Source: a virus. Taken from it: a DNA stretch of 64,000 nucleotides. The notes under the pieces were generated by a model. The model was given only the letters and a program-made list of their open reading frames with translations. It was not told where the DNA came from and searched no databases. This document shows, one piece after another, positions 1-24,547 of this stretch. The DNA lies in the IMG/VR virus record IMGVR_UViG_3300046787_000129, positions 1 to 64,000 of that record; one strand, 5' to 3'. Positions within the stretch are counted from its first letter, which is position 1. Every line of letters starts with the position of its first letter. The translations under genes were made by a program, and so were the position numbers.

Positions 1-1146
1 CTATTTAACTGGGCATCTATTCTAGATGAGAAAACACTTGAGCAGGCTAAGACTACTTCGTCAATGCCGTTCATTTTCCCACACCTAGCACTGATGCCAG
101 ATGCACATCTTGGTAAGGGGTCTACTGTTGGGTCAGTAATTCCTACACAGGGAGCCATTATGCCTGCTGCGATTGGTGTAGACATTGGCTGTGGAATGAT
201 GGCTATTAAGACTAACAAGAATGTACACGACATAGAGGGTGTAAATCTTAAGGAACTGCGTGAGTCAATTGAGTCTGCGATTCCACTATCAGCCTTTAAA
301 CATAATCAGACAGTTAAGCCAGACGCACTTGATGCAGCAGAAGAACTACTTGACGCTGCCCTGGATGCTGGGTTTAATCCATCAGACTATGCGAGCAACT
401 GGACACACCAACTAGGTTCCCTTGGTTCTGGTAATCACTTTATTGAGATTACAGTGGATGAGGAAAACTCTATCTGGCTATTCTTGCACTCAGGTTCTCG
501 TGGAATTGGTAATAAGATTGCTACACATCACATTGCCGTTGCACAGGGGTATGCAAAGAAGAACTTTATTACCCTGGTAGATCCAGACCTAGCGTACCTT
601 GTAGAAGGCACTGTAGAGTTCGATCGCTACATCGCCGAGATGACTTGGGCACAGAAGTTTGCATTTAAGAATCGTGAAGTAATGATGAGTCGTGTCAAGA
701 AGGCATTTAAGCATCACGTTGGTGATTTCGAAATCATTGAAGAGATTAACTGTCACCACAACTTTACTCAGCCTGAGAATCATCGGGGCAAGAATCTGTG
801 GATAACTCGTAAGGGTGCTATCTCTGCTAATGAAGGACAGATGGGTCTTATTCCAGGTTCAATGGGCACTGCATCGTATGTGGTTGAAGGGCTTGGCAAT
901 AAACTTTCGTTCTGCACTGCACCACATGGTGCTGGGCGTGAATACTCTCGTAATGAAGCACGAAAGGTCTTTACAAAAGAGTCCTTAGATGATATGATGA
1001 GAGGTATTGAATGGTCACACTCTGAAGCATTCATCGATGAACATCCAAATGCATACAAGGATATTGATGTTGTCATGGAAGACGCTAAAGATTTAGTAAA
1101 GATTAGACACGTACTACATCAGATTATTAACGTAAAGGGAGACTAA
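1..1146 (+). CDS. rtcB: RtcB-family 3'-phosphate/5'-OH RNA ligase (5' end lies before the window)
   Basis: Motifs MPDAH, GVDIGCG, GSGNHFIE, HSGSRG, HHN, RKGA, PGSMG, HGAGR, AYKDI. Frame is open from base 1 (LFNWASILDE...). Confidence 0.95.
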   Translation, partial: LFNWASILDEKTLEQAKTTSSMPFIFPHLALMPDAHLGKGSTVGSVIPTQGAIMPAAIGVDIGCGMMAIKTNKNVHDIEGVNLKELRESIESAIPLSAFKHNQTVKPDALDAAEELLDAALDAGFNPSDYASNWTHQLGSLGSGNHFIEITVDEENSIWLFLHSGSRGIGNKIATHHIAVAQGYAKKNFITLVDPDLAYLVEGTVEFDRYIAEMTWAQKFAFKNREVMMSRVKKAFKHHVGDFEIIEEINCHHNFTQPENHRGKNLWITRKGAISANEGQMGLIPGSMGTASYVVEGLGNKLSFCTAPHGAGREYSRNEARKVFTKESLDDMMRGIEWSHSEAFIDEHPNAYKDIDVVMEDAKDLVKIRHVLHQIINVKGD

Positions 1147-6932: not shown

Positions 6933-7318
6933 TTACATCCCTCGTGTCCACAGCAGTTGTTACAGGTGTATTCCATGTCGTCTTCTTGGCAAGCATAAGC
7001 GTCATCATTGAAAGGATTATCACATACCTCGCAAGTTTCGATGTAGAGGTCAACCTCGTAGTCAGTATCTGGCTCGAAAGGAATCTCAGTTACATAGTAG
7101 CCTAGGCGATTTACAAAGTGATAGCCTTCGCTGATTACAAAGCCGTAATCAATCTGTGAATAAGTCCAGATGGTGTTTTCTGGGGCAGAGCGAACAAAGT
7201 CCAACTCTTCACCATAAGTCTCATACATAAAGTTATCTGGTTGCTTACTAATACTATTCTTGATTGGTTTGAACTGTTCCTCAAACTCTGACCAAGTTAG
7301 TGATACTCTTTTAGACAT
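6929..7318 (-). CDS. hypothetical protein with C-terminal Zn finger
   Basis: Start MSKRVSL after AAGGA-ACCCA; GYHFVNRLGY; CEVC...CNNCCGH. Confidence 0.75.
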   Translation of the reverse strand: MSKRVSLTWSEFEEQFKPIKNSISKQPDNFMYETYGEELDFVRSAPENTIWTYSQIDYGFVISEGYHFVNRLGYYVTEIPFEPDTDYEVDLYIETCEVCDNPFNDDAYACQEDDMEYTCNNCCGHEGCK

Positions 7319-7332
7319 TGGGTTATCCTTTT

Positions 7333-8387: not shown

Positions 8388-9395
8388 CTATGCCATAGCG
8401 ACTTGCTGAACAATCTTTAGCAAGCGGTTCTTCTCGGCGTTCACCATTGGGTCAAAGCCTGAAGCACTAGCAAGGATAGACTCGTTAGAGCCACCTCGTC
8501 CGTTACGATACCAGTCAAGACGCTCAGTTAGTCCGTTCAAAGCACCCCAAGCAGTTCCAGCAATCATGCCGTTTTGGTTGCCACGATAGATAGACTGGAT
8601 TAGGTCAATCTTGCCATCATACTTCTTCTGTGAACCCTTAGCGTCCTTGTCTGGGGCAGGGTAGGCAAGAGCAACAATCTCGTCAAACTGACGCTCAGTG
8701 ATAGTCTTTTCAATCATAGCCTGTGCCATCTTGTCAAACTCGTCCATGTATTTGTTAGCCAAGCCAAGAGCCTCACGAGCAACCGCAATCTTACCCTCTG
8801 CGGTCTGGGTGTGGCGAATCTTGAAAGACTGCTTAGGACCTTTTCGGTTAGCACCAAGAGCAAGGTTTAGAGTGTTAGCACATACAACACGAACAGGGGT
8901 AATGCTTGCCTGAATAGCAACAGAGCCATCATGGCTAGTGTTGATTAGCAGATAGGTGTTGATTTTGTCACTAACGCCAGTAGGGTCTAGGACAGTCTCA
9001 CGCTCAAGAGCAAGCGAACCGAATACCTGACGCCCTCCCTTGATAGAGCCAGCAGTCTCCCAGCGTCCTCCGCCATCTAGAATGTTGTCACCAAAGGCGA
9101 ACAAGTCCTCGTTCTGAAGAACCTTGTAACGCTCACCAACAACGCCAAGAATGTCGTTCTCGTCCTTGTTGAATGGGTTAGTTCGGGTAACGAATGAGTA
9201 GGTCTTGTCTGAGTTGAAACCATCAGGGGTAGCAACATCTTCTAGACGAACATTCCAGTTATCTAGGTGTGCCAATGATAGCATTTTCTGAGTAGTGACT
9301 TCTTCGGTAAAGACTGTTCCAAGTCCATGCCATGCTGGCTCTCGCAATGAAGCGAAAGCGGTCTGTCCATCTACTGATTCTAGTTCGTGAGCCAT
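8388..9395 (-). CDS. DUF932 (TIGR03299-like phage/plasmid) protein
   Basis: MAHELE...PAWHGLG...ETAGS..GG...SHDGS.....TPVRVVCANTL...RHT signature. Confidence 0.9.
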   Translation of the reverse strand: MAHELESVDGQTAFASLREPAWHGLGTVFTEEVTTQKMLSLAHLDNWNVRLEDVATPDGFNSDKTYSFVTRTNPFNKDENDILGVVGERYKVLQNEDLFAFGDNILDGGGRWETAGSIKGGRQVFGSLALERETVLDPTGVSDKINTYLLINTSHDGSVAIQASITPVRVVCANTLNLALGANRKGPKQSFKIRHTQTAEGKIAVAREALGLANKYMDEFDKMAQAMIEKTITERQFDEIVALAYPAPDKDAKGSQKKYDGKIDLIQSIYRGNQNGMIAGTAWGALNGLTERLDWYRNGRGGSNESILASASGFDPMVNAEKNRLLKIVQQVAMA

Positions 9396-9550
9396 AAGAG
9401 ACTTCTTTCTTTAGTGGGTTATCTTGATGTATAACTAGATTACCAAAGAAACTAGTGTTTGTCAAGACTATTTAGCAAAATATTTTGGCGTGTCTTAAAG
9501 CTTATCGTAACTTGATCAGGAATAAAGGGGGCAGGGGCCGACCCCAAAAG

Positions 9551-9578
9551 GGAGCAGTTTATCAACTTGCTCAGGTTG
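9551..9578 (-). ncRNA. H-type pseudoknot motif, copy 1
   Basis: CAAC-CUGAGCAA-GUUG-AU-AAAC-UGCUC directly after a stop codon. Confidence 0.55.
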
Positions 9579-9585
9579 TTTGTTA

Positions 9586-10029
9586 CTAGGCTTCGTTACA
9601 GTAGATTGGGTCTGTCGTGTAGTCCAGAATCGTGTGGCTGTAAGAATCAATGCTCACATCAATGTCGCTCTCAATGTCAGCGGTATCAGGACCATCTTCA
9701 CCAAAAGGAACTTCAATGTCAATGTTGATAGTAACATTCAACTCATACGACTTGGTAGTTGTAAGGTCAATCTCTGCCTGCTCTGCGATGTTCTTGATAG
9801 TGTCAATGTCACCGTCAAGTTCATCTGCTACATACTGAAGAACCTTGCGAATCTTTAGTTCATAGTTAGCCTTAGCAGAACGCAACTCAAAGTGCTGTGA
9901 ACGTGCTTCTTCAAGTTGCTTAGTTAGTTTATCAATGTTCTCTTGCTTGGCAATAGCCTCTGACTCTAGTAGAGCGATACGACCTGCGATTGATGGGTGG
10001 TCTAGAACTGACATTTCTTCTTCTTTCAT
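9586..10029 (-). CDS. coiled-coil hypothetical protein
   Basis: 147 aa ORF. Confidence 0.75.
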   Translation of the reverse strand: MKEEEMSVLDHPSIAGRIALLESEAIAKQENIDKLTKQLEEARSQHFELRSAKANYELKIRKVLQYVADELDGDIDTIKNIAEQAEIDLTTTKSYELNVTINIDIEVPFGEDGPDTADIESDIDVSIDSYSHTILDYTTDPIYCNEA

Positions 10030-10187
10030 TAGAGGGCTTTTCTTAGTGCTTCTAGTCTATCAATGACCTCAGACAATAACTCTCGGTAGTCACTTGCTCT
10101 TAGGTCTTTGTTGTATGTTTCGTGGTAGTCCTTATCGAACTCGTCTGACCATTCCCGAAGGATAGCCCTTGCCTTACTCTTCCTCAT
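10029..10187 (-). CDS. small hypothetical protein (52 aa)
   Basis: MRKSKARAILREW...; read by hand. Confidence 0.5.
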   Translation of the reverse strand: MRKSKARAILREWSDEFDKDYHETYNKDLRASDYRELLSEVIDRLEALRKAL

Positions 10188-10353
10188 CTTCATCTTCCTC
10201 AGCGTCTTCCAATTCTGCTACCTCAATAGAATCGACAGCAAAATAGTTTAGATTCTCTTCCCAATCCCAACCCATAGACTCTGCTTCTTCCCTAGAGTCT
10301 GCTTCTACTTCTCCAACATACTCAATGGTAGTTGTTACTTCATACTTTGGCAT
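10174..10353 (-). CDS. small very acidic protein (59 aa)
   Basis: MPKYEVTTTIEYVGEVEADSREEAE...EDEDEEE. Confidence 0.65.
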   Translation of the reverse strand: MPKYEVTTTIEYVGEVEADSREEAESMGWDWEENLNYFAVDSIEVAELEDAEEDEDEEE

Positions 10354-10357
10354 TTAC

Positions 10358-10486
10358 TTATCCTAACATCATCATTTGGTATTGTAGCCAGTCGTCAAAC
10401 TCATACTGGCAGTCTTGGCATAGGGGGTGAACCGAGTCTACAGGGTCATAGTCTAGTGGTTCTTCACATTGGTAGCATTTATTCAT
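10358..10486 (-). CDS. small Zn-finger protein (42 aa), leaderless
   Basis: CYQC...CQDC; ATG 7 nt after -10. Confidence 0.6.
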   Translation of the reverse strand: MNKCYQCEEPLDYDPVDSVHPLCQDCQYEFDDWLQYQMMMLG

Positions 10487-10516
10487 AGTGTCTACTTTAG
10501 CATTACCCTCAGACAT

Positions 10517-10612
10517 TTAGTCCTCCATGTCATAGCAACGTTTACATTCTCCGAACCAAGTATCTGGTATCTGTGTTACCCCACAGGTCTTACACGTTAT
10601 TAGGTTAGACAT
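10517..10612 (-). CDS. small Zn-finger protein (31 aa)
   Basis: CKTC...CKRC. Confidence 0.55.
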   Translation of the reverse strand: MSNLITCKTCGVTQIPDTWFGECKRCYDMED

Positions 10613-10816
10613 TTAGCCCTCTACAATCCTAAACTCATACCCATTATCGCCATCTTGCTTTGCCTCTTCAAACTCTGACTCTTTTGAAAAGTAGAAGAAG
10701 ATGTTATCATCATCCTCGTCTAGAGAGTTCCACTCACCGTCAAGTGAAACGGTAGTTGCGTATTGAACTCCAGGTTCATCGTGCCATTCAATAACGACAT
10801 CCCTATACTCAGCCAT
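10613..10816 (-). CDS. acidic hypothetical protein
   Basis: DDNIFFYF motif; probable start MAEYR. Confidence 0.65.
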   Translation of the reverse strand: MAEYRDVVIEWHDEPGVQYATTVSLDGEWNSLDEDDDNIFFYFSKESEFEEAKQDGDNGYEFRIVEG

Positions 10817-11040
10817 TAGCAATCTCCATTCGAATACAACTCACTTGGCACACCTAAGCGACCTAGGACAACTTCTCTACCTGCGATACTTCCCTCAAGA
10901 TAATCAACAAAACTATCATTGATGTCATACTGTTCCATCTCTAGGCGGTAGGCAACAATCTCAGAGATTAGCAACTCACATAACTCATCTAGGTTGCCAA
11001 TACCGTAGTCTGCGTTTCTGTCTAGAACAATCTTGCTCAT
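10816..11040 (-). CDS. hypothetical protein
   Basis: 74 aa, GAAAGGA RBS. Confidence 0.7.
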   Translation of the reverse strand: MSKIVLDRNADYGIGNLDELCELLISEIVAYRLEMEQYDINDSFVDYLEGSIAGREVVLGRLGVPSELYSNGDC

Positions 11041-11086
11041 TGGATTTCCTTTCGTTATGCTTCTATTGTAGGGGTAGGGTCAGACA

Positions 11087-11296
11087 TTATACATACTCGT
11101 CTAGATACTCTTGGATGTCCTCACCATTTAGGCAAGCAAGGGCAAAGATGATACGCTCTGAATCTGGCAGGGTAGATAGGATGTCCCACTGCTCATCAGT
11201 AAGAGCGTCAGTAGGGAAGATAACAATCTCCTCGTTCTGAGAGTATGAACCATCGTGAGCAACAAAAGCAACATCGTTCTGGTATTCGTATGACAT
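11087..11296 (-). CDS. acidic hypothetical protein
   Basis: Start MSYEYQ after AAGGAG. Confidence 0.7.
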   Translation of the reverse strand: MSYEYQNDVAFVAHDGSYSQNEEIVIFPTDALTDEQWDILSTLPDSERIIFALACLNGEDIQEYLDEYV

Positions 11297-11429
11297 GGGT
11301 TTCTCCTTTGTTTGATTACTATAACTATACAACTACCCTCAGACATTTAAGGGATTTCGTACGGCGTGTCTTAAAGCTTTTGAATAAAGGGTGGCAGGGG
11401 TCGGCCCTTTTTGATCAGCTGTCAAGGTA

Positions 11430-11585
11430 AAAGAAAACCCCCTAGCAGTATGGAGGGATTTCCTCTATTATGTCTAGGGAGTTCTATTTCGCCAAGAGTC
11501 CTTGCGGTTATTCCTGACTTGCTATTTTTATCGTGTTTGCCATCACGCCTGTAAGCCGTTGCCTAGGACACTTACAGGAGGCTTG
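11430..11585 (-). ncRNA. candidate structured RNA ending in a terminator
   Basis: CCUGUAAG/CUUACAGG, CGUG/CACG, CC-GCAA-GG and CCCUAG/CUAGGG stems then U-run; no ORF. Confidence 0.35.
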
Positions 11586-11590
11586 GTTAG

Positions 11591-11622
11591 TGAGCAGTTT
11601 ACCTAGACTTGCTCAGGTCTTA
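11591..11622 (-). ncRNA. H-type pseudoknot motif, copy 2
   Basis: AGAC-CUGAGCAA-GUCU-AGGU-AAAC-UGCUCA after a stop codon. Confidence 0.55.
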
Positions 11623-11632
11623 GTTCATCTTA

Positions 11633-12076
11633 TTAGATTAGGTCAATGACCGAAGAATAAGACGAGGCTGATACTTCCTCTTGGAGAGTCATACGAAGAA
11701 TACGCAGGTTCTTCTCAAGGATTTCCTTGCGAGTAGTGTATTCACGACCAAAGTAGGTCTTGTCGTTTGGCTTTGCTGGCTCAGTTGGTCGCTCTGGGAA
11801 ACCTAGTGCCTGAGAGTCAAAGTCTACTGAGATACCGCCACGGTAGTTAGTAGAGATACGGATAGGAGAGTTGCTATCAGTTCCAAGATTGCTTGGGTCA
11901 CTAATAGCCTCAATAACCTTTGCGGATAGGGAAGCCTCGAAAGCCTTTACCTGTTCCTTGTAAGCCTTGTATTCGTCAGCGTATGAGGCAACAGCGTTGT
12001 CAATCTTTGCGATAGACGCTTCAATGTCTGCGATTAGAGTTGATACTGGGATTTTTACTGAGATAGCACGAGCCAT
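11633..12076 (-). CDS. hypothetical protein (147 aa)
   Basis: Start MARAISV after ACCCA box. Confidence 0.75.
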   Translation of the reverse strand: MARAISVKIPVSTLIADIEASIAKIDNAVASYADEYKAYKEQVKAFEASLSAKVIEAISDPSNLGTDSNSPIRISTNYRGGISVDFDSQALGFPERPTEPAKPNDKTYFGREYTTRKEILEKNLRILRMTLQEEVSASSYSSVIDLI

Positions 12077-12213
12077 TGGGTGACTACTTTCTTTATTGGG
12101 TTTATTTGTTATTACAAGTTTAGCATAGGGGTTATACATTTGTCAAGGGGCAAACAGTTTCTAGATTTGCTTACCCCTCGACAAAGGGATTAGTTTACGC
12201 TTTCCATAGGCGG

Positions 12214-12250
12214 TGAGCAGTTATTTTCACAAAGACATACTCAGGTCTTT
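12214..12250 (-). ncRNA. H-type pseudoknot motif, copy 3
   Basis: AAAGAC-CUGAGUAU-GUCUUU...AAC-UGCUCA after a stop codon. Confidence 0.5.
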
Positions 12251-12267: not shown

Positions 12268-12423
12268 TTAGTTGTCTGCCTTTACAGTAGACCAACGAGG
12301 TGAACCATTTACATCAAGACGAACTCGGAACGAGCCGTTCTGGTTCTTTACAACTTCCTGAATGACACCTGACACGCCAGACTTAGCGGTGGTGAACTGT
12401 GAGCCAACAGTTAGAGCGTTCAT
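12268..12423 (-). CDS. small beta-barrel (SH3/KOW-like) protein, 51 aa
   Basis: MNALTVGSQFTTAKSGVSGVIQEVVKNQNGSFRVRLDVNGSPRWSTVKADN; fold is inferred. Confidence 0.65.
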   Translation of the reverse strand: MNALTVGSQFTTAKSGVSGVIQEVVKNQNGSFRVRLDVNGSPRWSTVKADN

Positions 12424-13573: not shown

Positions 13574-13781
13574 TACATGCCCAATCCCCTGCGTCATGGA
13601 AATAGCGTTCAACATCTGACCACGCCGTTTCACCCTTGAAATACTTTGTCTTACCGTCTAACACGGTCTTGTAGTAACCATGAAAGTTACTAGCATACCA
13701 TACCGTTCCATAGTCACTAGAATAAACTTCATCCCATGAACTAACTTCGGATACTTTAGTCTGTCGGGTTACAAACTGCAT
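13566..13781 (-). CDS. hypothetical protein
   Basis: 71 aa, AAGGAG RBS; KYFKGETAWSD. Confidence 0.7.
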   Translation of the reverse strand: MQFVTRQTKVSEVSSWDEVYSSDYGTVWYASNFHGYYKTVLDGKTKYFKGETAWSDVERYFHDAGDWACNV

Positions 13782-13821
13782 TTTGGCTCCTTTAGGTTAT
13801 AGAATAAGGTTAGCAGATTAG

Positions 13822-13992
13822 TTACTCATTGTCAAGGGCTTCACGCAATTTTGTTTGGCGTGTCCCCTTGTATTTCTTGGGGGTAATGACTTTAGCCTTA
13901 CCTTCCTTTAGCATAGACTGAAATAACGCTTGGCTCTCTGCCTTGCGAATAGCCTCGTTTACTTTACCTAATGGCTTCATCTTCTTCTTCAT
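13822..13992 (-). CDS. small basic protein (56 aa), leaderless
   Basis: MKKKMKPLGK...KKYKGTR; ATG 6 nt after -10. Confidence 0.6.
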   Translation of the reverse strand: MKKKMKPLGKVNEAIRKAESQALFQSMLKEGKAKVITPKKYKGTRQTKLREALDNE

Positions 13993-17548: not shown

Positions 17549-17747
17549 CACCTAAGCATTGGGTGTGCGTATATCCTGAGTTTGGGGTGTACGTACTGCC
17601 CTAGCAGTGTGCTCACTATATAAAATGTTGATTTTTATACGGAAACGTGTATCATACATCTCTAAAAAATATTCAGATTTTTGTCATTTTGGTTTTTGCA
17701 TAATTTTTCAGAATTTGCAAGATATATTTATAACGTTTGTATAACGT

Positions 17748-23305: not shown

Positions 23306-24547
23306 ATGACAATTTATACTAGACTGCAGATCAGACGAGGCGATGCCGCTGAGTGGATCGAAGCAAACCCAATACTTGCTGACGGTGAGCAGGCTCTAGA
23401 AAATGATACTCTAAAAACTAAGTTCGGTGATGGAGTCACAAACTACGTAGACCTTCCATACCAAGACCAACAGGGTCCAACAGGACCAACAGGTCCAATT
23501 GGAATAACAGGTCCTACAGGACCCAAGGGCGATACTGGATCTTTCGGTGGAGCGGTATTCACATATAGCTATCTAACAGACACAGTAGACTCAAATCCTG
23601 GATCTGGAAACCTAAAACTAAACAACACAATCTCTACAGCAACAGAGCTGTACATAAGCTTCTATGATGAGAATTCCGTAGACGCTTCCCCGTACTTAGA
23701 AACCATTGATGACTCTACTTCTGCAGTCAAGGGGCACTTCAAGATTCAGGAGGTAGCCAATGACAATAATTTTGCATATTACGCAATAATTGGAGAGCAC
23801 TACTTTCACGATACATACTTTGAGATTCCAATCCAATGGCTATCTGGTTCTATAACTTCCTGGACAAATGCTACAGATGTTACTATTACTTTTGTTAGAA
23901 CTGGCGACATGGGTGACACAGGTCCAACTGGGCCAACAGGGGCATCTGGACTAGATGGTGCCACAGGCCCAACAGGTCCACAAGGAGATCCAGGAGCAAC
24001 AGGGCCTGCTGGGTCAACAATAATAAATTGGCAGGGCGACTGGAGTGCACTAAGCACATACTCATCAAACGATATCGTATATTTTAATGGTAAGTCGTAC
24101 ATCTCGGTTGGAATATCTTATCCACCAGAAGATATAAACGCCACTCCAGAAAATATATCTACCTGGGAAATATTTGCATCTAGTGGAGCTTCTGGACCGA
24201 CTGGACCAACTGGTGCAACTGGCCCATCAGCACCTACCGTAACAGCAATAAATACAACATCTGCAACAGGCTATACCCTGCAGCTAACTGACAACAATCA
24301 GCTGCTATACCTAACTGGAACTTCTGCAGTAACTGTTACCATACCAGCTAATTCTTCGGTAGCCTTCCCAGTAGGATCTACAGTAAACTTTGTTCAGGCT
24401 AGTACTGGACAGGTTTCTGTAACTGGTCCAGCAGGAGGGTATTTAAACTATACCCCTGGAACGAAGACAAGAGCCCAATGGTCAATGGGGTCAATAATAA
24501 AGACAGATACTGATACTTGGCTTTTGGGCGGAGACCTAGTTAGCTAA
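23306..24547 (+). CDS. collagen-like tail fibre with C-terminal socket domain (copy 2)
   Basis: N-terminal QIRRG.AAEW...NP.L..GE...K.GDG; GPT repeats. Confidence 0.8.
   Translation: MTIYTRLQIRRGDAAEWIEANPILADGEQALENDTLKTKFGDGVTNYVDLPYQDQQGPTGPTGPIGITGPTGPKGDTGSFGGAVFTYSYLTDTVDSNPGSGNLKLNNTISTATELYISFYDENSVDASPYLETIDDSTSAVKGHFKIQEVANDNNFAYYAIIGEHYFHDTYFEIPIQWLSGSITSWTNATDVTITFVRTGDMGDTGPTGPTGASGLDGATGPTGPQGDPGATGPAGSTIINWQGDWSALSTYSSNDIVYFNGKSYISVGISYPPEDINATPENISTWEIFASSGASGPTGPTGATGPSAPTVTAINTTSATGYTLQLTDNNQLLYLTGTSAVTVTIPANSSVAFPVGSTVNFVQASTGQVSVTGPAGGYLNYTPGTKTRAQWSMGSIIKTDTDTWLLGGDLVS

Follow-up and report, generated by a model that had tools for sequence, protein, structure and literature searches.

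A compact H-type pseudoknot anchored just past stop codons in a virus genome and in phages, prophages and plasmids of many bacterial phyla

The window analyzed here is a stretch of 64,000 nucleotides of DNA from IMG/VR virus record IMGVR_UViG_3300046787_000129, a lake phage whose genome measures 109.6 kb. Within it, three minus-strand genes are each followed by a short RNA motif (Table 1). A search with the pattern GAGCAGTT..TRCTCAG returned exactly three matches in the window, at 9552-9574, 11592-11616 and 12215-12244 in plus-strand coordinates, against a chance expectation of 0.02 matches, and none of 100 shuffled sequences reached three. When a covariance model (R1) built from 136 copies of the motif was run over the 109.6-kb genome, these three and a fourth copy scored 33 to 45 bits, and the next best match in the genome scored 11.7 bits. 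The pattern count, the shuffles and the covariance model together confirm three compact H-type pseudoknots between positions 9,551 and 12,250, as a preliminary description of this DNA had proposed. The same description had suspected a looser variant at 17569-17616 (+); that segment lacks both the P1 helix and the AAC of the motif and is not matched by the model at E<=10, and we do not retain it.

Table 1. Pseudoknot copies and neighboring features, with strand
Feature	Position	Strand	Description
Pseudoknot copy 1	9552..9578	-	CAAC-CUGAGCAA-GUUG-AUAAAC-UGCUC; P1 CAAC/GUUG, loop CUGAGCAA, L3 AUAAAC, P2 GAGCA/UGCUC; model R1 44.9 bits
Pseudoknot copy 2	11592..11620	-	AGAC-CUGAGCAA-GUCU-AGGUAAAC-UGCUC; P1 AGAC/GUCU, loop CUGAGCAA, L3 AGGUAAAC, P2 GAGCA/UGCUC; model R1 40.9 bits
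Pseudoknot copy 3	12215..12250	-	AAAGAC-CUGAGUAU-GUCUUU-GUGAAAAUAAC-UGCUC; P1 AAAGAC/GUCUUU, loop CUGAGUAU, L3 GUGAAAAUAAC, P2 GAGUA/UGCUC including one U-G wobble; model R1 33.2 bits
Pseudoknot copy 4	97509-97537	+	Outside the window; found by covariance model
Gene upstream of copy 1	9586..10029	-	147 aa; no family match
Gene upstream of copy 2	11633..12139	-	168 aa; no family match
Gene upstream of copy 3	12268..12423	-	51 aa; weak sub-threshold KOW-like match
Terminator-like hairpin and U-rich tail	9528..9545	-	3' of copy 1
Sigma-70-like promoter of next gene	12117..12146	-	TTGACA-18-TAAACT; 69 nt downstream of copy 3

Measured on the minus-strand ORFs, the three copies in the window start 7, 12 and 17 nt past a stop codon, in agreement with the range of 7 to 17 nt noted earlier. 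The stops are TAG (9586-9588) for copy 1 and TAA for copies 2 (11633-11635) and 3 (12268-12270), with a second stop, TAA in both cases, directly after those of copies 1 and 2. Copy 4 starts 6 nt past the stop of an Hsp20 gene, and its loop, CUGACCAU, pairs with UGGUC. The arrangement recurs elsewhere: homologues of the gene upstream of copy 2 in three IMG/VR contigs also have the pseudoknot directly 3', and the homologue of the gene upstream of copy 3 at locus L001 is followed by a copy whose P2 is GGGUA/UGCCC. Downstream of copy 1, the 3-nt spacer that separates it from the terminator-like hairpin runs into a CCUUUU stretch. Copy 3 lies at the end of a transcription unit, since the promoter of the next gene sits a short distance downstream of it.

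The motif is about 27 bases long, of which about ten are invariant or nearly so. Read along the sense strand, it consists of P1, C-U, the 5-bp P2 strand, one nucleotide, P1', an A-rich linker that ends in AAC, and the P2' strand. In the consensus, P1 has 4 to 6 bp with a C-G closing pair, L1 is C(U), a single junction nucleotide varies (A, U or C), P2 has 5 to 6 Watson-Crick or wobble pairs ending in an invariant A-U pair, and L3 is A-rich and ends in AAC. The loop follows C-U-R-R-N-Y-A-W, with an invariant U at position 2 and the G coming at position 3. The P1 closing pair is C-G in 129 of 136 aligned copies, and the second pair is A-U or U-A in 131 of them. In a seed scan that constrained only the C and the G of the P1 closing pair, the full P1 was seen at 99 of 118 seeded IMG/VR loci.

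Both helices covary among the paralogous copies in the genome and about 200 more from IMG/VR contigs, prophages and plasmids. A descriptor of the motif matched 174 times, compared with twice in reversed sequence. Among candidates defined by sequence alone, all tested pairs are Watson-Crick in 99, a single G-U pair occurs in 30 and a single A-C pair in 14, and the control yielded none with one or fewer non-Watson-Crick pairs. Within single genomes, compensatory variants of P2 include GAGCA/UGCUC, GACCA/UGGUC, GGCCA/UGGCC, AAGCA/UGCUU, GGGUA/UGCCC and GAACA/UGUUU. Thus, the fold proposed at the outset, an H-type knot in which the loop pairs with a 3' pentamer and P1 covaries, is borne out, since both helices show compensatory changes. 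G-U pairs exceed A-C pairs by 15 to 3 at inner positions, which shows the motif to be an RNA of the gene (sense) strand, and the motif is always oriented like the upstream ORF. The two helices must act together, because either one by itself has only marginal stability (-1.2 to -4 kcal/mol). A nested alternative hairpin, in which AAC would pair with the opening bases of P1', could form in copy 1 but not in the half of the copies whose second P1' base is A; we rejected it. All the invariant nucleotides are found at the junction of the helices or in the two groove-crossing loops, a placement that suggests a tertiary-stabilized, mechanically strong knot. By analogy with luteoviral and coremin-type knots, it also suggests that L3 makes A-minor contacts with P1 and that the L1 cytosine touches P2.

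Of 174 copies, 145 have an ORF end no more than 150 nt away, and 70 of these lie 2 to 9 nt past the stop. The distance from stop to knot has its mode at 4 to 10 nt, with no peak in an antisense control and a wide spread of distances to the next gene, so that the upstream stop codon is the anchor point of the knot. At least 38 unrelated gene families or clusters precede it, and genes for ArdA, RadC, Rad52-like and DUF932 proteins are among the genes upstream. In prophages, it lies between a minor head gene and a scaffold gene. A compact knot at this spacing from a stop is typical of stimulators of frameshifting or readthrough. The luteovirus-type frameshift pseudoknots of BWYV, PLRV and PEMV-1 (PMC10321173) are among the closest known structures. 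Those knots are likewise compact and H-type, of about 27 to 28 nt, with an L1 of 1 to 2 nt whose first base is a conserved C, one unpaired nucleotide at the junction and an L3 that is rich in A and placed for the minor groove of stem 1. Unlike them, the phage motif has a longer stem 2, has neither a slippery heptamer nor an open -1 frame, and lies past a stop codon and not within an ORF overlap. Moreover, copies 1 and 2 in the window follow tandem stops, and among 79 tightly spaced copies the frames stay open past the stop for a median of 8 (0 frame), 4 (+1 frame) and 6 (-1 frame) codons, which excludes recoding at these sites. Accordingly, we attach almost no probability to the idea that the knot stimulates programmed readthrough or +1/-1 frameshifting at the stop codon.

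We compared the motif with known RNA families. No Rfam 15 family reached its gathering threshold in the window and 14 other loci, and nothing relevant appeared at E<=10 in 4 kb of the window and three loci; the motif therefore keeps the novelty that, according to the preliminary description, a known Rfam family would have removed. A literature search with motif sequence strings returned only unrelated siRNA and primer matches. The preQ1-I riboswitch (RF00522) has a similar plan, an H-type fold of about 34 nt in which a hairpin is followed by an A-rich tail with AAAC at its end, and the loop pairs with a 3' segment. This resemblance, together with about ten near-invariant nucleotides that gather at the helical junction in phages whose hosts differ widely, would fit a binding site for a conserved protein or a small ligand, with a regulatory, riboswitch-like role. 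However, the phage motif has a shorter loop than preQ1-I without its conserved ligand-pairing cytosine, is not matched by RF00522 and has no Rfam riboswitch match even at E<=10. It stands 3' of genes and not before a consistent gene set, the junction nucleotide that would be expected to specify a ligand varies, and we found no protein family common to all loci (DUF932, the commonest, is present at 40 of 99). We therefore regard a ligand- or protein-binding role as distinctly improbable.

STAXI (RF01728) keeps similar company: it is described as a pseudoknot unit found in mobile elements, close to ssb, antirestriction and integrase genes; it forms an array of 153 positions with two to three tandem units and frequent UUCG tetraloops, and was reported from Enterobacteriales (PMC2864571). 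The ArdA, RadC, Rad52-like and DUF932 genes ahead of the phage knot recall that setting. The RF01728 model found no match at E<=10 in the genome under study or at loci L131, L145 and L176, and a search for STAXI in that genome, 151 Gammaproteobacteria, phage P1 and the Klebsiella IncFII leading region gave none over the cut-off. An antitoxin-mimic (ToxI-like) RNA, also suggested at first, finds no support: neither tandem 36-nt arrays nor a toxin partner are present.

We then considered what lies downstream of the knot. In roughly 40% of copies, a U-tract, a tRNA gene (and hence an RNase P cut) or a hammerhead ribozyme lies within about 13 nt; about 60% have no recognizable 3'-end-forming feature nearby. 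A U-tract within 10 nt follows 23% of IMG/VR copies and 40% of bacterial-genome copies, compared with 3.5% of background, and strong U-tracts follow 29% of bacterial-genome copies. This enrichment, 6- to 11-fold directly after P2, the scarcity of classical hairpin terminators within 75 nt (5 of 169 copies) and the location of the window copies at transcription-unit ends would all be expected if the knot were mainly a transcription signal, with a pseudoknot in place of the hairpin of an intrinsic terminator or pause element. The motif also resembles intrinsic terminators and 3' stabilizer hairpins in lying directly past stops at the ends of transcription or processing units, in the U-tracts that follow 23 to 40% of copies, and in its proposed roles of forming 3' ends and blocking 3' exonucleases. 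It differs from terminators in being a pseudoknot with about ten invariant nucleotides rather than an arbitrary G+C-rich hairpin, and in that most copies (60 to 77%) have no U-tract. In addition, P2 alone is a weak helix, and many copies lie in short intercistronic gaps or 4 to 12 nt before tRNAs that must be co-transcribed; 32 of 169 copies are 20 to 45 nt before the next start codon with no terminator or U-tract between. A role primarily as a terminator or pause signal is thus unlikely.

The tRNAs and ribozymes bear on a further possibility, that the knot is itself the processing signal, either a very small self-cleaving ribozyme, as had been suggested, or a mimic of a tRNA minihelix that RNase P cuts. 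A tRNA starts 4 to 12 nt past the knot in 28 of 169 copies. At locus L174, a type III hammerhead (Rfam Hammerhead_3, 50.5 bits) starts at the 3' end of the knot, and hammerhead cores follow the knot at L108 and L016. The knot therefore occupies the same genomic niche as hammerheads and tRNAs, and the bases after P2, often A and then C-rich (A 67%, C 47%, C 44%), faintly resemble a discriminator base and CCA. Yet ACC is far from universal, and the 5' and 3' ends of the knot exit opposite ends of the helix stack, unlike those of an acceptor stem. A complete hammerhead stands alongside wherever cleavage is evidently required, and among the self-cleaving families compared (hammerhead, twister, pistol, hatchet and HDV-like) only that separate Hammerhead_3 at L174 was found; the knot matches none. 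To our knowledge, 27 nt without conserved flanks is far below any natural self-cleaving class. With these observations the small ribozyme loses its footing, and processing by the knot itself is very improbable. Cleavage by RNase P or a hammerhead downstream would leave the knot on the upstream fragment and not on the downstream one.

The other close structural likeness is to coremin (xrRNA-C) and its Watson-Crick variant xrRNA-WCC, from beny-, cucumo- and other eukaryotic RNA viruses. Coremin brings Xrn1 and scanning ribosomes to a halt, and xrRNA-WCC stimulates frameshifting without a second hairpin (PMC6546385, PMC10520033, PMC10321173). Coremin (GUC-CGAA-GAC-GUUAAAC-UAC) and the phage knot (NWC-CUGAGCAA-GWN-NUAAAC-UGCUC) both lie just after ORFs and have a short first hairpin (3 to 5 bp) with a C-G closing pair and an A-U or U-A second pair, a cytosine as the first loop base (L1), a loop that ends in A-A or A-W, and a 6-nt linker, (N)UAAAC, directly followed by a U that is paired with the penultimate loop A. 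Removing the U from the phage loop CUGAGUAA gives CGAGUAA, a heptaloop variant that resists Xrn1. When the phage motif is set against the coremin spacer ...UUAAACUAC, UAAAC-U is common to both and the A-U pair is in the same register; the remaining 3' bases differ, and the Watson-Crick helix is longer (PMC10321173). The phage loop differs from that of coremin (YGAD or YGNNAD) in having 8 nt and U instead of G at position 2, and moving the loop G abolishes Xrn1 resistance (PMC10520033). Its P2 is a Watson-Crick helix of 5 to 6 bp, in contrast to the three mostly non-canonical pairs of coremin. The phage knot is therefore close to coremin/xrRNA-WCC and to luteovirus-type knots, but is not a member of those families.

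These shared features (the hp1 closing pair, the L1 cytosine, the loop end and the UAAAC-U linker) raise the possibility that the knot is a directional 5'-to-3' roadblock like xrRNAs, one that would act against RNase J or against sliding or readthrough ribosomes arriving from the upstream cistron, shield the RNA downstream, be it a tRNA array, a ribozyme or the next cistron, and give parts of an operon different stabilities. The bacterial hosts of the motif lack Xrn1. RNase J or a near-full-length RNase J-like protein is encoded in four of five knot-bearing genomes checked, and model matches are commoner in Bacillota (10 of 150) and Patescibacteria (6 of 150) than in Pseudomonadota (1 of 151) and Bacteroidota (1 of 151). 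In the prophages, the scaffold gene behind the knot specifies a product that is presumably needed in larger amounts. On the other hand, RNase J is absent from the fifth genome checked, a knot-bearing Bacteroidota genome, and the anchoring is to the upstream stop and not to the downstream unit. An hp2-like hairpin, which coremin needs for exonuclease resistance, starts 0 to 4 nt after P2 in 28 of 167 copies, compared with 32 at a control offset and 21 in shuffles, and so is not enriched. Finally, cleavage at a following tRNA or hammerhead detaches the knot, which therefore cannot protect that downstream RNA. On balance, we find a 5'-to-3' roadblock rather unlikely. Similarly doubtful is the broader proposal that the motif would be the bacterial-virus counterpart of coremin/xrRNA-WCC, a universal minimal roadblock serving as a modular gene-end signal across phyla, whose U-tract copies would be the first pseudoknot-type intrinsic terminators. 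If the fold is shared with coremin xrRNA, it would link the mechanical RNA roadblocks of bacterial and eukaryotic viruses and give structural biologists a simple Watson-Crick version of that fold, the structure of which was unsolved according to papers from 2023.

Copies occur in phages, prophages and plasmids of many bacterial phyla and groups, including Actinomycetota-type lake phages, Bacillota, Patescibacteria, Cyanobacteriota, Bacteroidota and Pseudomonadota, and most of them stand singly, scattered over the genome. By its portal and DUF932 genes, Streptomyces phage NootNoot is the closest cultured relative, and it carries no copy.

From this genomic context, we tentatively favor, at somewhat less than an even chance, a compact, tertiary-stabilized roadblock that would mark out the 3' end of the upstream mRNA and protect it. 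Among the functions listed in the preliminary description, nuclease blocking or end definition fits best with the stop anchoring and with the U-tracts, tRNAs and hammerheads within about 13 nt, and it is the blocking activity itself that we infer. As a gene-end module, the 3' UTR bases just past the stop would fold into the compact H-type pseudoknot. A 3' end would form a few bases downstream, by termination at an adjacent U-tract or, alternatively, through RNase P at a following tRNA, a following hammerhead ribozyme or some endonuclease. The knot would then halt 3'-to-5' exonucleases short of the stop codon, and its placement 4 to 10 nt past the stop would leave no bare RNA between it and a terminating ribosome. 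We know of no demonstration of resistance to PNPase, RNase II or RNase R for so small a knot. Its studied relatives, coremin and xrRNA-WCC, block 5'-to-3' enzymes and not 3'-to-5' ones (PMC10321173, PMC10520033). If the motif is a 3'-end cap or a terminator, it would add a new, very small component to phage gene expression, and could serve as a ready-made insulator or stabilizer in synthetic biology and as a new mark for annotating gene ends. In any case, a 27-nt RNA with about ten invariant bases, absent from Rfam, recurs past the stops of dozens of unrelated genes.

In a few copies, a UGA in the loop serves as the stop codon of a small ORF, and ribosomes must therefore unfold the knot there. 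The U-R-R triplet of the loop as the stop of the upstream ORF holds only for a handful of small ORFs, and we rejected it as a general explanation. In 16 copies, the frame of the loop stays open for 30 codons or more, compared with 7 and 5 copies for the other two frames.

The preliminary description had placed three compact H-type pseudoknots just after stop codons, and all three match that description once the minus strand is read. They share a common layout, namely a first helix (P1), an 8-nt loop of the form CUGAGYAW, the returning strand P1', a linker ending in AAC, and a UGCUC segment that pairs with loop bases 3-7 (P2), and they start 7, 12 and 17 nt 3' of the stop codons of three unrelated small ORFs. 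The number of matches to this three-copy pattern expected by chance is 0.02. A fourth copy lies 6 nt after the stop codon of an Hsp20 gene, as found both by a structural descriptor and by R1, a covariance model built from 136 copies. Its loop, CUGACCAU, pairs with UGGUC, which constitutes a double compensatory change in P2. R1 scores the four copies at 33-45 bits and the next best match in this genome at 11.7 bits, and neither the descriptor nor R1 found a fifth copy in this genome. The looser variant that had also been suggested is absent from the R1 matches, and we do not retain it.

Coordinates of the pseudoknot copies and associated features
Feature	Position	Strand
Knot copy 1	window 9552-9578	minus
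Knot copy 2	window 11592-11620	minus
Knot copy 3	window 12215-12250	minus
Knot copy 4	genome 97509-97537	plus
Segment 3' of copy 4	genome 97538-97568 (L005:13538-13568)	
Suggested looser variant	window 17569-17616	
Second intergenic module, first occurrence	window 9487-9545	minus
Second intergenic module, second occurrence	window 11364-11408	minus
AAAUGUCUGAGGG or near copy	window 10503-10516; 11337-11350; ~11075-11090	minus
DUF932 gene	window 8388-9395	
RtcB RNA ligase gene	window 64-1146	plus
Mtd_N/collagen-repeat protein	window 23306-24547	plus
Knot between DUF932 gene and tRNA-Asp	L127:5010-5043	
Hammerhead at first L174 knot	L174:7541-7595	minus
Hammerhead at second L174 knot	L174:~7270-7324	minus
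Knot and hammerhead core	L108:~1650-1726	
Knot and hammerhead core	L016:~13775-13850	
Three knot copies	L131:4990-5320	minus

The knot is a real, widespread and uncatalogued RNA, without a match in Rfam 15, and its structure is well supported. Three IMG/VR relatives of the phage, located by way of the 168-aa upstream protein, hold 11 further copies. The covariation claimed for P1 extends to these relatives, in which nearly every copy has a different stem (CAAC, AGAC, ACAC, UCUG, CGUC, CCAC, AGUC). P2 shows compensatory changes as well (GGGUA/UGCCC, AAGCA/UGCUU, GAACA/UGUUU, GGCCA/UGGCC, AGGCA/UGCCU), and L1 (CU), the second-last loop A and AAC-U-G are invariant. In a wider scan of IMG/VR the pattern specified the loop, the P1 closing pair and the 3' segment and nothing else, and it returned at least 118 loci; 99 of the 118 matches listed have a full P1 with 4 bp or more, though three of its four pairs were unspecified. 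The structural descriptor gave 174 matches versus 2 in reversed sequence, again among the matches listed.

Changes on both sides of a pair occur at all four P1 pairs and at four of the five P2 pairs in A1, an alignment of 136 sequences. Because that set had been selected for pairing, the weight rests on unbiased tests, in which candidates were picked by sequence alone and seven unconstrained pairs were checked in each. All seven pairs were Watson-Crick in 99 candidates, while 30 had one G-U, 14 one A-C and 22 one other mismatch; no reversed control had one or fewer non-Watson-Crick pairs. The outermost pair of P1 accounts for most exceptions. Further in, G-U pairs exceed A-C pairs by 15 to 3, indicating that it is the gene-strand RNA that forms the structure. 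Each helix by itself contributes only -1.2 to -4 kcal/mol.

Several identities were rejected. A double-stranded DNA site is contradicted by copies within one genome, which keep complementarity and not sequence, and by the strand specificity of the G-U pairs. As for a recoding signal, the frames stay open past the stop for a median of only 8, 4 and 6 codons, and two of the window copies come after tandem stops. Known RNA families had been named as a check on novelty: Rfam 15 was blank at gathering thresholds for the window and 14 loci, with nothing relevant at E<=10, and the STAXI model (RF01728) matches none of the knot copies tested, in this genome and at L131, L145 and L176, at E<=10.

About half of the IMG/VR loci are of the same phage group as the window: among the matches listed, the DUF932 gene is common to 40 of 99. 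The other 52 have none of the common genes. True copies of the same pattern are found in bacterial contigs from Saccharibacteria, Lachnospiraceae and other Eubacteriales, Eggerthellaceae, Ligilactobacillus, Calothrix, Polynucleobacter, Omnitrophota, Aminicenantes and a Deltaproteobacteria MAG, and a Fischerella plasmid copy has another P2 (GGAUA/UGUCU). Where annotatable, the neighbours of bacterial copies are phage or mobile-element genes (minor head protein with scaffold protein, ArdA antirestriction protein, Sipho_Gp157, Rad52-like protein, RadC). When approximately 150 genomes per phylum were sampled, a model match was present in 10 of 150 Bacillota, 6 of 150 Patescibacteria, 2 of 150 Cyanobacteriota, and 1 of 151 in both Pseudomonadota and Bacteroidota.

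Among the matches listed, 145 of 174 copies lie within 150 nt 3' of a same-strand ORF of at least 60 codons, and 70 of those 145 start 2-9 nt after the stop; across the 174 copies the antisense control is flat, and the next start codon lies at widely varying distances. The upstream genes fall into at least 38 clusters. A U-tract within 10 nt of the knot accompanies 23% of IMG/VR copies and 40% of bacterial-genome copies, versus a background of 3.5%. Of 169 non-redundant copies, 28 have a tRNA gene that begins 4-12 nt 3' of the knot. At L174, a type III hammerhead (Rfam, 50.5 bits) starts at the last knot bases, and a second knot is followed by the same CUGAUGAG hammerhead core; at L108 and L016, hammerhead cores lie 29 nt after the knot. 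For about 40% of copies, the sequence up to about 13 nt past the knot predicts a 3'-end-making event, whether U-tract termination, RNase P cutting at the 5' end of a tRNA, or self-cleavage by a hammerhead.

Of these events, an RNase P or hammerhead cut would leave the knot on the upstream fragment. This evidence and the close anchoring of the knot to the upstream stop suggest that it serves the 3' end of the upstream message. From this context we infer, tentatively and at somewhat less than even confidence, that the knot may be a 3'-end element that blocks 3'-to-5' exonucleases: a compact block that would halt them before the stop codon is eroded and, where a U-tract comes next, would also act as the terminator helix. 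A pure terminator or pause element is a rival reading, on which the U-tracts bear; classical hairpin terminators are rare near the knot (5 of 169), the next ORF starts within 45 nt without an intervening terminator or U-tract in 32 of 169 copies. The 3' flanks hold neither a conserved sequence nor a conserved hairpin. The knot might instead be a processing signal, given the adjoining tRNAs and hammerheads. Another rival is a ligand or protein binding site. The invariant bases (the P1 closing C-G, the L1 cytosine, the junction-side Y-G and A-U pairs of P2, and the linker AAC) are confined to the helical junction and the groove-crossing loops, a pattern that fits a knot stabilised by base triples and A-minor contacts and not a protein-recognition sequence. 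A site for a single partner protein was rejected, as no protein family is found at every locus.

Among the closest likenesses is coremin, a 20-mer with hp1 GUC/GAC and a C-G closing pair, loop CGAA and spacer GUUAAACUAC (PMC10520033). Its authors modelled it as an H-type knot in which the first loop C serves as L1, pairing joins loop bases 6-8 to spacer bases 20-18, and spacer adenosines occupy the hp1 minor groove (PMC10520033). Both RNAs have the C-G closing pair, an A-U or U-A second pair, the L1 cytosine, a loop end of A-A or A-W, a 6-nt linker NUAAAC, and a U after the linker that pairs in the same register with the second-last loop A. An Xrn1-resistant heptaloop variant, CGAGUAA, is one U apart from the phage loop CUGAGUAA. 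Position 2 of the phage loop, however, is not G, and the second hairpin that coremin requires is not enriched 3' of the knot, so the knot is not a member of the coremin family. By analogy, it may nonetheless fold and work like coremin; the Watson-Crick variant, xrRNA-WCC, needs no hp2 to stall ribosomes (PMC10321173). A 5'-to-3' roadblock is a further rival reading, against which the anchoring to the upstream stop speaks. Luteoviral frameshift knots have its architecture but not its context, and the preQ1-I riboswitch shares the outline alone.

Further arrangements were seen at individual loci. Many relatives (L127, the homologous L099, L101, L114 and L120, and others) have a DUF932 gene, a knot and then tRNA-Asp 4-12 nt on; the window DUF932 gene has no knot 3' of it. 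The type III hammerheads of L174, L108 and L016 start at the knot 3' end or 13 nt past it, and a Polynucleobacter MAG contig has two successive knot-hammerhead units. At L131, three knots lie in 300 nt, and two short ORFs (approximately 29 and 17 codons) end exactly at the loop UGA (ACC-UGA-GCA). In every loop the triplet reads U-R-R (UGA, UAA, UAG or UGG).

The virus record is a single contig of 109,629 bp, of which the window is the first 64 kb. At approximately 4-19 kb the genes are small and on the minus strand, with sigma-70-like promoters ahead of them; plus-strand portal, capsid, tape-measure and tail genes come next. The phage is probably an uncultured actinophage, since NootNoot-type Streptomyces phages are its closest relatives in culture, going by the portal protein (47% identity) and the DUF932 gene; NootNoot itself has no knot. 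A terminator-like hairpin lies 6 nt 3' of copy 1, and copy 3 is followed by the next promoter. Copy 4 is followed by UUUUCU and then by GGTATAAT, a -10-like element 5 nt before the next ATG and a possible promoter for a leaderless mRNA. Leaderless mRNAs are common in Actinobacteria. A second intergenic module, occurring twice in the early region and first at 6 nt 3' of copy 1, comprises a G+C-rich hairpin-like segment (GGGGYCGRCCCC-UGCC-CCC-UUUAUUC) and, 2-17 nt on, AAGCUUUAAGACACGCC; it looks like a terminator/promoter cassette. The RtcB gene (PHROG match, E 1e-136) has no knot 3' of it. A tail-region protein with collagen repeats and an N-terminal Mtd_N (major tropism determinant) domain hints at a diversity-generating retroelement target or related receptor-binding protein. 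Finally, several small early ORFs have AAAUGUCUGAGGG or a near copy at their starts and thus share the first codons Met-Ser-Glu-Gly.
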